Of a DNA stretch of 43,067 nt, positions 10,259 through 15,671 are shown piece after piece. The number at the start of each line of letters is the position of its first letter. Positions within the stretch are counted from its first letter, which is position 1. Source of the DNA: a virus (Duplodnaviria; Heunggongvirae; Uroviricota; Caudoviricetes); the IMG/VR virus record IMGVR_UViG_2657244961_000008, positions 1 through 43,067 of that record, one strand, 5' to 3'. A program made the translations under genes and the position numbers. A model generated the notes under the pieces. It ran no database searches. It was given only the letters and a program-made list of their open reading frames with translations, and had not been told where the DNA came from.

Positions 10259-10599
10259 CAGTGAGTGACCTCTTCAAAGGTACAGTTAAAATCGGTATAC
10301 ATGGCATTATCCGAAATGCTCCACTCCCTGCAGACAACCCGGACAGTCCTGTTGTGTTTTGGCGGACGCCACAAAAAAGCACGAACCCCGGCATGACGGG
10401 ATAAAAAACTGTCCAGCGCGGCACGGGAATATTCATCCGTGACACGAAATACCGGTTTAAACGTTTTCAGATCTGCATTCAGACCACCAGCCCGTCGCTG
10501 TTCATATCCGTCACCGAACTTTACCGTAATAACAGATGGCTTTCGTGTCGTCTCCATCCCCTCGCGGGGGATCCAGTTAAAAACTTCAGACTCAGGCAC
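10258..10599 (-). CDS. M: minor tail protein M
   Basis: Conserved FGDGYEQR motif as in lambda M. The track ORF starts at a TTG at 10644; a GTG at 10599 preceded by GGAGGA gives about 114 aa and overlaps the H stop by 8 nt. The start is uncertain. Confidence 0.65.
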   Translation of the reverse strand: MPESEVFNWIPREGMETTRKPSVITVKFGDGYEQRRAGGLNADLKTFKPVFRVTDEYSRAALDSFLSRHAGVRAFLWRPPKHNRTVRVVCREWSISDNAMYTDFNCTFEEVTH

Positions 10600-13500
10600 T
10601 GCATAATCCTCCGTCCCGACGTGATGACTGCATAATTGACACAACCCTGCTGTCGATCAGATCCACCAGTCCCCTGGCTGAGCGCGCATCTATCTCGCCA
10701 TTGCTCCCTTGATTCTGAATGCTGATGTGATACACGGGAGAATAAACAAATCCACCGCCACCATTCACATTTCCAATGGCCCTGACCCCAAGAGAGCCGT
10801 CCGCTGCCCGTGTCAGTGGCATGATTGCTTCAGGCCCGGCCTCGCCCATCAACCCGGCACCTTTCGCAAAAGCAAAATACGTCGGTGTATCCACAATAGT
10901 GTTACTGTAAGCACTCAGATTTGCCGATGTATAAACACCACCTTTTGCGTTTGCCACTGCACCGGACAGCCAGTCGCCGACTGTACCAAGCCATCCTCCG
11001 GCACCGGACATGCTTTTGGAAAGTGACTTCAGCCCGTTAACGATGGCAGCGTTCATCAGAATTTTTGAAACTTCCTGGAGAATTGAACTCCCCCAGTTTC
11101 TCCAGTCCACAACATTTCCGGCCAGTGCATCGGAAATATTTGATACCAGCCCGTCCATAGTGGAAACGACAGCATCTGCCGCCTGCGAAGCATAATCAGT
11201 GGCACTGTCTGCCCAGTTCGTCAGCCCCTCCTGGAGTCCGGCATTCCAGTTACTGCGTAAAGCATCAGCCTTTGCATAATAATCCTGCTGATCGCTGAGA
11301 CGCTCTTCCAGATATTTTTTATTCAGTTCTTTCTCCTGTTTCCACAGGGCTTCTTCAATTTCTCCGGCCTGATACTGTCTCAGCAGCTCGTTATTTTTCT
11401 GCTCAAACGCCTGCCGGATACTCCACATTTCCTGGAGTCGTTCACGCATCCGTGAGCCTTCACCATATCCCAGCAACTGCGCGTCGTCAGATGCCCGGGC
11501 GCTGGCATTACTGTCCGCCAGACTGCTTTCATACGCGGCAAGCTGCTCACGAATCTTTTTCTGGTCGATGAGTGCCGCATTCTGTAAAAGCGTTTTTTTC
11601 TGCGCTTCTGACAGGGTTGATAATTCGCCCTGACTGACCTGATATTTCATCTTAGCCAGTTCAGTATTCTGCCCTGCCAGTGCTATTTGTTCTTTTTGCT
11701 GTTTAATCAGCCGTTTATAAATATCTTCTGTTTTTTCCGCTTCGGTCTTTTTATGCGCTTTGGGTTTATTTGCCTGGTTATTTCGCCAGGCATCCAGTGA
11801 GTTATTGATATAATTCTGTCTGGCTGTCTGATACGCCTCTCCCACAAAGCCGAGATCATCCGCAGCATAACCCAGTCGGGCACGCTCACGGGCTTCCCCC
11901 TTCAGGCGGGACAGAGCCAGTTCGCGCTCGCTGTTATTCAGTGCGGTCTGCTGTTTATCATCCAGGGTTGCCTGTGGTAGCCGTAATGGTGCATTCACCA
12001 GCCCCTGTCGCTGCTGAAGTAATTCATTACCAAGCCCGAGAAGACGATTAAACTCGGTATGCTGCCCATTCATGATCAACAGGGACTGATACGCTTTGTT
12101 TTGTTCCGCCGCCTGTTGACGGATCAACGCCACCCGTCGCTCCTCCAGCCCGGCAAGCACATCCTGAATAGATTGCGCTTTGCCCTGCATTTGAGTGAGG
12201 CGAGACTGTTCAACTGCCAGTTGATTTGTTGCTTCTGCAAGCCCTTCTGTGACAGTTTTCACCGACGTCATATGGTTAATCATAAAACCGTTATCGGTTG
12301 TCCAGCCCGGGTTTGCCAGCACATACTGATAGCCAGCAATTTTTTCCTGTAAGGATTTAATCTTACTTTTCTGCTCGTCAATTAACCTGTTTTGCTCATC
12401 AAGTGCCTGCCGCGTCTTTTCTTCATTATCTGACGTTTCAGGAAGCGACATTGCCGACGTTTTCTGGCGAATTTCGTCGATTGTTGCGGCATACTGGCGT
12501 GCAGATTCTCTGGCCTGCTCCTGATTCTGATACATCGTGTACCAGGCCGTCGCCCCCAGCATGACGAGTCCCGGCACACCACCAACCAACCCCAGCGCAC
12601 CACTTAACAGACGACTCCCCACTGACGTGACAGTATTCAGCGTTGTCTGTGCCGCTGTTCTGGCCGCAATATTACGGGTAAGTGACGCCTGGGCAGCTGT
12701 CAGCTTCGCTTCTGCTGCGGCCTGCCTTTCGGTACCGCGAGCAGCAACAACCGCCTGTTGCGCACGATAAACCGCCGCACGCGCCCTGGCGGTTGCTATC
12801 TGTGTCCCCCGAAGTTGCGCTTCAGCAAGAGCCACTTCGTTTCTGGCTGCAGTAATTAATCCGGCAGTTGCAGATCCAGCAGACGACGCCATATTGCCAA
12901 AATATCGGGCTACCCCGACGGCAACCAGTGCGCCAGCTGCAGCAGCCACGGTATCAATATTGTCTGCAACACCATTCAACACCCCGGTGAGTGTCTTTGT
13001 CACTCCGCTTGCCTCGTTCGCACCACCAACCCAGGCCATAAAGGCGTTTTCAACTTTGGTTGCAGAGGATGAAACAGTATCAGGCATTGCTGCATATTCA
13101 TCACGCAACGCCCCAAGCTGACTAATCAGTGCAGGAACAACCTTATCGGCGGTCAGTTTTCCGTTATCCGCCATGGCCTTCAGATCTTTACGGGCAACAC
13201 CCATTCCCGCAGCCAGCGCACGAATAACACGATCGCCGTTCTCATTCACAGAGTTAAATTCTTCACCGCGCAGCACTCCCTGCGCCAGTGCCTGACTGAA
13301 CTGCGTGATCACCGAACTGGCTTCTGCTGTACTGGCACCGGATAATTTCAGGCCCGTGGAGATCGCCTCGGTGACTTTCAGTACCTCCTCAGAACTGTAG
13401 CCATACTCCCGCATGGAAGCTGCAGAGCGGGCAAAAAGGCTGGCGTTATCAGAAAACGCCGTTCCCGTTCTCTGGCTGATTGCCATTAATTCACGTTGTG

Positions 13501-13837
13501 ATACCTGAAAATCATCACTGGACTGTGAAGCCTGCTTCAGACGGGCATTTACTGAATTCCACTCATCGGCGAGAGAAATAAGATGACCGGTAGCAAAAGC
13601 TCCGGCAAATGCCCCCGCCATATTCAGTGCCGAAGATTTAGCTGTATTTATCTGATCCGTCACTTCTGCCAGTGCACGCCGCATTTCACGGGATGCAGCA
13701 GCGGACTGCCGGCCTCCGTTCTGCATGGTACGGTAGTAATCCTGCCCCATACGCGAAGCCCGGGAGATCTCTGACTGGAATGACCGGGAATTTGCCGAGA
13801 TTTTAATAATCAGTTCACGTAATGTCGCCACACTCAT
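10592..13837 (-). CDS. H: tail tape measure protein H
   Basis: 1081 aa, coiled-coil/Ala-Gln-rich, in the canonical position after G-T. Confidence 0.9.
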   Translation of the reverse strand: MSVATLRELIIKISANSRSFQSEISRASRMGQDYYRTMQNGGRQSAAASREMRRALAEVTDQINTAKSSALNMAGAFAGAFATGHLISLADEWNSVNARLKQASQSSDDFQVSQRELMAISQRTGTAFSDNASLFARSAASMREYGYSSEEVLKVTEAISTGLKLSGASTAEASSVITQFSQALAQGVLRGEEFNSVNENGDRVIRALAAGMGVARKDLKAMADNGKLTADKVVPALISQLGALRDEYAAMPDTVSSSATKVENAFMAWVGGANEASGVTKTLTGVLNGVADNIDTVAAAAGALVAVGVARYFGNMASSAGSATAGLITAARNEVALAEAQLRGTQIATARARAAVYRAQQAVVAARGTERQAAAEAKLTAAQASLTRNIAARTAAQTTLNTVTSVGSRLLSGALGLVGGVPGLVMLGATAWYTMYQNQEQARESARQYAATIDEIRQKTSAMSLPETSDNEEKTRQALDEQNRLIDEQKSKIKSLQEKIAGYQYVLANPGWTTDNGFMINHMTSVKTVTEGLAEATNQLAVEQSRLTQMQGKAQSIQDVLAGLEERRVALIRQQAAEQNKAYQSLLIMNGQHTEFNRLLGLGNELLQQRQGLVNAPLRLPQATLDDKQQTALNNSERELALSRLKGEARERARLGYAADDLGFVGEAYQTARQNYINNSLDAWRNNQANKPKAHKKTEAEKTEDIYKRLIKQQKEQIALAGQNTELAKMKYQVSQGELSTLSEAQKKTLLQNAALIDQKKIREQLAAYESSLADSNASARASDDAQLLGYGEGSRMRERLQEMWSIRQAFEQKNNELLRQYQAGEIEEALWKQEKELNKKYLEERLSDQQDYYAKADALRSNWNAGLQEGLTNWADSATDYASQAADAVVSTMDGLVSNISDALAGNVVDWRNWGSSILQEVSKILMNAAIVNGLKSLSKSMSGAGGWLGTVGDWLSGAVANAKGGVYTSANLSAYSNTIVDTPTYFAFAKGAGLMGEAGPEAIMPLTRAADGSLGVRAIGNVNGGGGFVYSPVYHISIQNQGSNGEIDARSARGLVDLIDSRVVSIMQSSRRDGGLCSA

Positions 13838-13845
13838 TCTCCGGA

Positions 13846-13872
13846 CGAAAAAAAACCGCCGAAGCGGTTTTT
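13846..13872. terminator. bidirectional-looking intrinsic terminator between the moron and H
   Basis: Hairpin AACCGC-CGAA-GCGGTT (13854..13869) flanked by A8 (13848..13855) and T5 (13868..13872). Confidence 0.55.
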
Positions 13873-13879
13873 GTATTCT

Positions 13880-14224
13880 TTAAAGAAGTCCGGCCTTACG
13901 CCTTGCTTCCTGAAGATATTCATCATCCGTTTTTTGTGAAACGGAACTATCTGCATTGCAAATTAAATCACTACCGCAATGCTTACATTTAATAGCCTCT
14001 TCTTTGATCAACTCCGCACAGTAAGGGCATTTCTTCATGCCATTGCTTACCATTTGTTGTTCATGTGCCTTCTCATCTCTTTGGATTACTAGCGAATGAA
14101 CCAGAGCAACAATAAAGATCATCGCACCATATACCCACCATCCTAAAAATGAGCGACCTTTGCTTTTCGCAATAATAGCTGGAATTAGTCCCAAAACTAT
14201 TGAAATAAGTAAAAATTCCATCAA
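13880..14224 (-). CDS. moron: small membrane protein with C-terminal zinc ribbon, function unknown
   Basis: 114 aa with two N-terminal hydrophobic helices and a CPYC...CKHC motif. AT-rich by inspection, with its own promoter-like sequence (TTGACT...TTTATT), an AAGGA RBS and a terminator. Confidence 0.6.
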
Positions 14225-14278: not shown

Positions 14279-14590
14279 TCATCGAGCTGCAACAAATAAT
14301 GCCTTCTCAATCTCAGCAAATGGATCTGAGGTGCCTTCTGTCTGCTCCTTCTCCCACTGAAGAAGCGCATCATTCAGTGGCACTTTGACCCCCTGCGCAC
14401 CGTAAACAGCTGAAACTATCTGGGCAGCCCGGATATCAGCCCGCTCGTCACCCAGCGGGCTGAACCTGTCAAATTCTGCCCACATCATGATTTCTGATGC
14501 AGACATTTCCCGGCGTAACTCTGACAATGTGCGCCCCATCCTGAGCGCCAGCATCATCAGAAAACGCATCCCCGGAAGCGCTACTTTTTT
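14279..14590 (-). CDS. T: tail assembly chaperone T segment, expressed as a G-T fusion by -1 frameshift
   Basis: 96-aa ORF in the -1 frame relative to G, directly downstream of the slippery site. The frame arithmetic was checked by hand. Confidence 0.7.
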   Translation of the reverse strand, partial: KKVALPGMRFLMMLALRMGRTLSELRREMSASEIMMWAEFDRFSPLGDERADIRAAQIVSAVYGAQGVKVPLNDALLQWEKEQTEGTSDPFAEIEKALFVAAR

Positions 14591-14967
14591 TTAACCTCAC
14601 CGGCATCACTGATCAGTTCCAGAGACTGCCGAAGAAGCCGCGCATGCACCGGGCCATACACGGCAATCACCTGTTCACGATCATCCTCTGAAAATACAGG
14701 TTGCAGTCCGGTATCACACAGAACATCAATGAACAGTTCAACATCTGCCTCCAGATTTCGGCGGGCGCGCTCCGCAACGGATAACGGTGTCTCATCATCT
14801 TTTGCTTTAACGATCTCCTGCCAGCGCAACCAGGCTTCTGCAGAAGGTTCCCGTAATACAACCGTTGCCCCTTCCCATTCAGGCACATCAACAGTTTTAT
14901 GGCGAAACCCCGACATCGTTGCCAGTGCCAGATTACGGATATTTTTAGTCATCACATCTATCCTCAT
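14581..14967 (-). CDS. G: tail assembly chaperone G
   Basis: 128 aa, acidic, ends GEVKKK. Lies between V and T. Confidence 0.8.
   Translation of the reverse strand: MRIDVMTKNIRNLALATMSGFRHKTVDVPEWEGATVVLREPSAEAWLRWQEIVKAKDDETPLSVAERARRNLEADVELFIDVLCDTGLQPVFSEDDREQVIAVYGPVHARLLRQSLELISDAGEVKKK
14584..14590 (-). promoter_or_regulatory. programmed -1 ribosomal frameshift slippery heptamer A AAA AAG
   Basis: Minus-strand sequence GTT AAA AAA AAG TAG at the end of G. The heptamer is of the dnaX type, and a -1 slip continues into the T frame (K-K-V-A-L-P-G-M-R-F...). Confidence 0.65.
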
Positions 14968-15671
14968 TAACTGACGGTAACAGTGCAGGAAGTGGAGGTC
15001 ACCTTGTTAACCGGGCTTGCTGAATCAGAAATCTCGCAGGTATATGCACCCGCATCACCGGATACTGCGGATGCCTTACTGAACGTTGCCGCCGTCTGTC
15101 CGGAAACAGGAGAACCACCTTTCTTCCAGACATAAGAATAAGGCGGCACACCACCGGCAGCCTCAACCGCCATTTCAAGTTTCGCTCCGGCAGAAACCTG
15201 CAGCGTGCTGTTTAAATCGACCTTCACTTTTAGCGGCTCTGTCGTCAGCACAGGTTTACCTTTCAGACGCAGGGAAAACGTTGCAGCCACAACACCATTG
15301 GTTCCTGCAGACCAGGTATGCTGACGCACCTCTGCCATAAAGGTAAATCCGTTGCCTGACGGAAAAATAACTTTAAAGCCATACGTGGTGTCATTGTCAT
15401 AGGCACTGCGCAACGCGTTCTGGGCAGCATTGAGGTAAAAGTTGCCTGACATGGAAATCTCTGACGCGGCACCAAGGCCGTTAATATTTTCCTGCTCAAC
15501 AGAACACAGCGTGGTGACATCAATATCCTGCTTTTGTCCTGCGGTAAACTGCACCTCTTTAATCGTACAGCTCAGTTCAAGAAAACTGGCAGAACTCAGC
15601 GTTTCTGCCGTTACCGGCGCAGACGAGATCATGACTTTGGTCTGCTGAGAACGTTCAAAATTAGAGGACAT
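14967..15671 (-). CDS. V: major tail protein V with C-terminal Ig-like domain
   Basis: 234 aa. C-terminal segment GGVPPYSYVWKK...AYTCEISD is typical of a Big_2/Ig-like domain. Confidence 0.85.
   Translation of the reverse strand: MSSNFERSQQTKVMISSAPVTAETLSSASFLELSCTIKEVQFTAGQKQDIDVTTLCSVEQENINGLGAASEISMSGNFYLNAAQNALRSAYDNDTTYGFKVIFPSGNGFTFMAEVRQHTWSAGTNGVVAATFSLRLKGKPVLTTEPLKVKVDLNSTLQVSAGAKLEMAVEAAGGVPPYSYVWKKGGSPVSGQTAATFSKASAVSGDAGAYTCEISDSASPVNKVTSTSCTVTVS

Follow-up and report, generated by a model that had tools for sequence, protein, structure and literature searches.

The G/G-T frameshift of phage lambda is reportedly described in studies by Levin, Hendrix and Casjens from 1993 and by Xu, Hendrix and Duda from 2004, 2013 and 2014, and a -1 frameshift in the G/GT chaperone genes is said to be conserved among the long-tailed phages (Xu et al. 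2004, Mol Cell). What is stated here about the latter paper is taken from the citations of it in PMC5009743, PMC3711429 and PMC10274946, and reaches as far as those citations do. The lambda products are made at a G to GT ratio of about 30:1, which is critical to tail assembly (PMC5009743). The locus described below follows the same logic as lambda, with a low-efficiency -1 shift near the end of G and a T domain of the same family (PF06223), but the lambda heptamer is G_GGA_AAG whereas that of our locus is A_AAA_AAG. Lambda G is not known to be a member of PF06222, the HK97-type family that is matched by G of our locus, and the G proteins of the two phages would thus be of different families.

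The gene pair gp13/gp14 of phage HK97 belongs to the same families as the genes of our locus, with a G that is 64% identical and the same T domain, and the two phages share the gene order major tail protein, G, T, an optional moron and tape measure protein. The same -1 fusion of about 224 aa is annotated in HK97 as 'translated due to a -1 frameshift', and the homologs in HK97 and HK446 are both given as -1 frameshift joins. The shift site of HK97 is CGG GAA AAG, located 15 nt before the G stop in a 52-nt overlap and an imperfect X_XXY_YYZ, whereas our locus has a perfect A_AAA_AAG abutting the stop in a 10-nt overlap. The core A_AAA_AAG_TAG with its adjacent stop is identical in the Stx-phage or BP-4795-type junction (GeneTack cluster Phage_TAC 862991913), where G is 67% identical to ours and the -1 linker follows the same pattern, KKVAxP; the two differ in the length of the A-run, which is A6 (AGA AAA AAG) in the tested site and A8 (GTT AAA AAA AAG) here, and in the spacer after the stop, CCC GCC CGG and CGC TTC CGG respectively. 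A junction AGA AAA AAG TAG, identical to the BP-4795 type, gave 7% frameshifting in an E. coli reporter (Antonov 2013; PMC3711429, Table S2), and a relative with G_GGA_AAG gave 6% +/- 0.61 in the same reporter, these being the two tested members of the 'Phage_TAC' cluster (PMC3711429). The heptamer A_AAA_AAG, read by the same single tRNA-Lys, is also found in the dnaX gene of E. coli (PMC5009743), where gamma and tau are produced and the shift reaches about 50% with an upstream Shine-Dalgarno-like element and a downstream stem-loop (PMC3711429, Figure 1 legend). Neither of these two stimulators is conserved at the G-T site studied here.

The window, by which we mean the whole 43,067-nt stretch of DNA that was analysed, very probably contains the G/GT programmed -1 frameshift site of the tail assembly chaperone of an HK97-like E. 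coli prophage, since the identities of the genes, their order, their frame relationship and the slippery heptamer all fit this reading. On the minus strand the order is major tail protein (15671..14967), G (14952..14581), T (14569..14279) and tape measure protein (13837..10592). G matches PF06222 (Phage_TAC_1, E 2.8e-58) and phrog_344, and ends with ...GEVKKK before a TAG stop. The start of G is most likely the ATG at 14952, giving a protein of 123 aa beginning with MTKNIRNL, and not the ATG at 14967 which would give 128 aa, because a GAGGA sits 8 nt upstream of the former, the Pfam match begins at residue 6, and both the phi467 and the PGAP annotations begin G at MTKN. At 14967 the mechanically called start codon shares bases with the stop codon that ends the major tail gene. 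The 96-aa ORF of T has a match to PF06223 (Phage_tail_T, E 1.6e-20) that lies well above the Pfam threshold. The product of 10592..13837 is a tape measure protein of HK97/lambda type, matching the HK97-type family PF06120 (E 1e-94) as well as PF20155 and PF09718, and by analogy with lambda it would be the binding partner of G and GT.

The gene upstream of G (14967..15671, minus strand) encodes the major tail (tube) protein, which carries an Ig-like domain at its C-terminal end, as indicated by phrog_158 (E 4e-109) and by an Ig_2 match above its cut-off (E 4.5e-07); three tail-tube Pfam families also match, all of them below their cut-offs. The Ig-like domain is in frame, covers approximately residues 154-233 with matches to Ig_2 and Ig_3, and resembles Hoc-like decoration PHROGs, and PGAP names the whole protein just 'immunoglobulin domain-containing protein'. 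The slot between T and the tape measure gene holds an ORF of 114 aa (13880..14224, minus strand) with a hydrophobic N-terminal part, a zinc-ribbon (PF13248, E 1e-8) and a match to phrog_8436. The GC content of this segment is 35-41%, against 50-57% in the flanks, and a terminator-like hairpin, AAAAACCGCCGAAGCGGTTTTT, is located at 13851..13872 just past the stop. The ORF is missing in phi467 and vB_EcoM-606R7 and, by the same alignment gap, in other close phages; the distance from T to the tape measure gene in these phages is about 45 nt. In HK97 the slot is occupied by a different gene, gp15, annotated as 'moron product', and in Klebsiella phage MC05 by a different ORF of 173 aa. The 114-aa ORF thus looks like a classic moron, of a family (phrog_8436) without known function.

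The 3' end of G on the minus strand reads ...GCC GGT GAG GTT AAA AAA AAG TAG, and the last codons contain a run of eight A's (14592..14585) followed by a G, which together carry an in-frame slippery heptamer A_AAA_AAG at 14590..14584, with the zero-frame codons AAA at 14589-87 and AAG at 14586-84. The G stop, TAG at 14583..14581, follows immediately 3' of the heptamer. Immediately 5' of it, the -1 frame, i.e. the frame of T, is closed by a TAA at 14593..14591, whose last two bases are the A's that begin the run. From 14590 onward the -1 frame contains no stop until the TGA at 14281..14279 and includes the 96-aa ORF of T; after the TAA it reads AAA AAA GTA GCG CTT CCG GGG ATG CGT TTT, corresponding to the peptide KK-VALPG-MRFLMM... 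The stops of the two frames are 10 nt apart and the overlap is exactly filled by the heptamer, which leaves the A-run as the sole place where a shift could connect G with T. The original prediction had described the end of G as GTT AAA AAA AAG TAG with an A AAA AAG heptamer, a -1 frame open from there into the 96-aa ORF and closed by a TAA just upstream, and slippage at this site as the only route to a fusion, and each of these elements is borne out by the sequence. As a bare motif AAAAAAG is not enriched in the 43,067 nt of the window, with 11 copies where 9.85 are expected, and the significance of this copy comes, as judged from the sequence, from its context, since it is in frame, at the sole position permitted, between the PF06222 and PF06223 genes, and kept in 49 of 79 homologous loci. 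The +1 frame is also open for 38 codons past the A-run, within a mechanically called ORF of 46 aa (14469..14609, minus strand), and a -2/+1 shift or the deletion of one A from the transcript would add an unrelated tail of 38 aa to G.

Ribosomal -1 slippage of tRNA-Lys on A_AAA_AAG is the best-supported mechanism for joining the two genes. Most ribosomes should translate G to ...GEVKKK and stop at the TAG, giving the chaperone G. A minority would slip back by one base, with the single E. coli tRNA-Lys species on the AAA and AAG codons of the heptamer, and some may do so once AAG has reached the P site and the A site holds the TAG, which is decoded slowly. After the shift the G at 14584 and the TA of the stop codon form GTA (Val) in the -1 frame, and the ribosomes would continue through GTA GCG CTT CCG GGG ATG... 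to make a G-T fusion of 224 aa, ...VKKK-VALPG-MRFLMM... The -1-frame segment, 14584..14279 on the minus strand, thus consists of the linker VALPG and the T domain and ends at the TGA at 14281..14279. The coding sequence of the conceptual GT runs through 14952..14584 and then through 14584..14279, so that base 14584 is used two times, and the protein contains residues 1-123 of G, then VALPG, then the 96-aa ORF. It aligns in one continuous stretch to profile positions 1-222 of the 224 in phrog_14766 (E 8.4e-91), a family of proteins of the length of the fusion. If the parallel with lambda holds, the G part common to both products would attach to the tape measure protein, the T part would bring in the major tail protein, and the frequency of the shift would set the G to GT ratio required for tail assembly. 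From the homologous systems we infer that the window site itself shifts, along with its efficiency, expected to be a few percent, and the roles of G and GT.

For a census of the shift sites in relatives, phage records were combined with 72 loci from different bacterial species, found with a search from an alignment of 7 sequences, to a total of 81 loci. The T domain lies in the -1 frame in 79 of them, and the counts of shift sites rest on those 79. An in-frame A_AAA_AAG is present in 49 loci, 34 of which have the G stop directly 3' as in the window, while the lambda-type G_GGA_AAG is found in 6, and 24 contain A_AAG alone after a non-slippery codon, a group that includes CGG GAA AAG of HK97; in 14 of these 24 a stop follows right after the AAG. 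A_AAA_AAG is thus the majority shift signal predicted from the sequences of this G-T family. The original prediction had pointed out A AAA AAG as used rather than G GGA AAG of lambda; the heptamer is correctly identified, but the novelty that was implied does not hold, with 49 relatives against 6 having the respective signals. The A-run is A6 in 5, A7 in 34, A8 in 9 and A9 in one of the 49 A_AAA_AAG loci, i.e. merely six or seven nucleotides long in 39 of them, and the conserved element is therefore the in-frame heptamer and not a long homopolymer. In three of the 72 chromosomal homologs, L105, L118 and L149, G or T is disrupted or truncated, in that the -1 frame does not contain a T domain or G has a premature stop, and these three are probably decaying prophages.

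Some relatives, among them loci from Klebsiella, Pantoea and Erwinia, do not contain any X_XXY_YYZ but just (G/A)(C/A/T)A AAG followed by TAA; loci without X_XXY_YYZ include L086, L107, L109, L110, L123, L124, L129, L130, L132, L152, L154 and L159, and in some of the relatives without a heptamer the -1 frame opens only 10-16 nt upstream. A_AAG alone supports -1 shifting (PMC5009743), and slippage of a single tRNA on A_AAG, while a stop codon occupies the A site, would be the only plausible shift in these relatives. That they keep A_AAG directly before TAA suggests that in the G-T family the neighbouring stop belongs to the functional signal.

The auxiliary signals that could be expected around the heptamer are not conserved in the family. 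The original prediction had proposed folding of 14500..14583 as a way to find a downstream stimulatory structure, and hairpins are indeed predicted in the window, starting 1 nt and 22 nt past the heptamer and with z values between about -2.3 and -2.8 (a fold of 64 nt has about -2.8), the one at 22 nt (z -2.8; 14520..14561, minus strand) seen in the window sequence only; comparative analysis with RNAalifold and shuffled alignments of 25 relatives, on the other hand, gives no support to them. RNAalifold found 0 consensus pairs downstream of the site in 25 diverse relatives with the same junction of A_AAA_AAG and stop, the window hairpins show no excess pairing in the relatives (58.8% of cells, against 57.9% in column shuffles), and their covariation is not above that of the shuffles (score 0.072 against 0.073). 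Pairing did exceed that of slid-partner controls (39.5-49.4%), which is expected since the structure was derived from one of the aligned sequences. The shift site of HK97 is located about 15 nt farther upstream, yet the same coding sequence LALRMGRT stays in place. A downstream stimulatory structure was hence rejected as a conserved signal, on the missing consensus pairs, the lack of excess pairing and covariation, and the displaced HK97 site. A stem-loop of the dnaX type, about 5-9 nt past the heptamer, was not found in the window, where the local hairpins begin at 1 nt and 22 nt.

Upstream of the site a GAGGU ends 3 nt 5' of the heptamer. SD-like tetramers are present in 11 of 27 relatives with variable spacing, so that no conserved upstream SD stimulator was found among these, and sequence comparison shows that the homologous junction measured at 7% does not have any SD-like motif. 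An upstream Shine-Dalgarno stimulator was accordingly rejected as a feature of the family, the GAGGU being only 3 nt from the heptamer and not conserved. A spacing of about 10 nt is the one reported (Larsen et al. 1994) to stimulate -1 shifting in dnaX, and at its nearer position the GAGGU might even damp the shift. The signal therefore appears, from the sequences compared, to be the heptamer itself, possibly aided by the adjacent stop codon.

The locus is widespread. A region of 1.9 kb is 96-98% identical to the E. coli phages phi467 and Evi and to several vB_Eco isolates, the G-T segment was found in 901 of 5426 complete E. coli genomes with 95-100% conservation, and at least 80 IMG/VR contigs carry the G-T locus with 99-100% identity at the protein level. 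The scan of viral contigs gave just loci that are 99-100% identical, and informs on the stability of the A-run and not on diversity; the run is A8 in 81 of 82 near-identical contigs and A7 in one. The latter (L057, IMGVR_UViG_2531839448_000005) has the junction GAGGTTAAAAAAAGTAG, where A7 places the +1-frame tail SSASGD... of 38 codons behind G and makes T inaccessible, and is either a homopolymer sequencing error or a dead copy. The records of phi467 and vB_EcoM-606R7 and the RefSeq annotation of the one E. coli genome inspected list separate CDSs for G and T, without a slippage join and without the 224-aa GT; the RefSeq product names in seven more genomes likewise give G and T apart.

The annotations are in line with T being a free protein of 96 aa, started at the ATG at 14567..14569, be it on its own or through termination-reinitiation following the stop of G, in which case a fusion would be unneeded. 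PGAP begins a separate 'tail assembly protein T' at this ATG, phage records also give T as a separate CDS, and the codon comes 11 nt after the TAG of G with GGGG just before it. The GGGG abuts the ATG with zero spacing, however, and a properly spaced SD is lacking. An ATG is found at the aligned position in just 23 of 79 relatives, and in two near-identical contigs the codon is ATA and GTG respectively. Among the 79 relatives, 74 have the Met of the conserved FLM motif; this Met lacks a conserved SD and lies downstream of the conserved linker. Conservation of the T-frame protein starts at the shift site, upstream of the ATG, with the pattern V-x-x-P; the -1 linker is V-[A/K/N/T]-x-P, where 25 of 28 distinct sequences have the Pro and CCT, CCA, CCC and CCG all serve as its codon, and such synonymous codons are a signature of translation in the -1 frame upstream of the ATG. 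The -1-frame stop is located exactly before the heptamer in the window and in other lineages, the fused proteins of 224 aa constitute a family of their own (phrog_14766) that conceptual GT matches end to end, and in lambda the connection between tape measure and tail tube protein is made by the fusion (PMC5009743). A free T protein is thereby highly improbable, and from the rarity of the ATG, its ATA and GTG variants and the conservation of the linker from the shift site we conclude that independent initiation of T would not be the functional route; the codon at 14567..14569 is probably an internal Met codon of GT. The notion of a chance homopolymer at the junction of a decaying prophage, where recoding would not take place and T would not function, could draw on the ordinary frequency of AAAAAAG in the window and on the many prophage copies that are cryptic, but the probability of this is vanishingly small. 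The locus is conserved to 95-100% in the 901 complete E. coli genomes and occurs in phages that are inducible or have been isolated, phi467 and Evi among them, the A8 run is retained in all but one of the 82 contigs, and T scores well above its Pfam threshold, and the conservation data would thus effectively refute a junction made by chance.

A different origin of the same fusion is slippage by the RNA polymerase, which might add one A on the A8 run so that mRNAs with A9 would have G and T in frame and give the fusion by standard translation. The product predicted from the sequence would be the same as the ribosomal one (...EVKKKVALPGMR..., i.e. ...VKKKVALPG...), and proteomics or mass spectrometry cannot separate the two mechanisms since the same protein arises from both. 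The run in the window is eight A's long, programmed transcriptional realignment takes place on homopolymers of at least eight (PMC3711429), and other members of the family include nine with A8 and one with A9. A8 is nevertheless a borderline length for polymerase slippage, whose onset is given as n > 7 (PMC3711429) or as 9, runs of 9 being the usual bacterial case (PMC5009743). The 39 loci of the 49 with A_AAA_AAG that have only A6-A7 speak against this mechanism, as does the tested A6 junction which still gives 7%, and a homopolymer is lacking altogether in the relatives that have G_GGA_AAG or just A_AAG. The conserved feature is moreover the frame of the heptamer, which concerns ribosomes and not RNA polymerase. 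Transcriptional slippage as the main source of the fusion is for these reasons very improbable, and since most relatives manage with A6-A7 or without any homopolymer it should make at most a minor extra contribution in the lineage of the window.

Ribosomal slippage on the heptamer is very probably the main route, and it is conceivable, but on balance unlikely, that in the lineage of the window three overlapping events on one element of 11 nt could together set the G to GT ratio, namely two-tRNA slippage on A_AAA_AAG, a shifty stop, where tRNA-Lys would slip in the P site during the wait of the TAG for release factor, and RNA polymerase slippage on A8, with the adjacent stop as a selected stimulator replacing RNA structures; such adjacency is seen in 34 of the 49 loci with A_AAA_AAG, as well as in all 14 relatives where just A_AAG comes before a stop. 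The mechanism, the gene family and the exact arrangement of heptamer plus stop are already documented and a close homolog has been measured, so biologically the site does not constitute anything new but is a textbook element. Its practical value lies in annotation, where the site should be given as a ribosomal-slippage join in a widespread lineage of E. coli prophages, and the census, with A_AAA_AAG as the majority signal, usually abutting the G stop and without a conserved RNA structure, could guide frameshift predictors.
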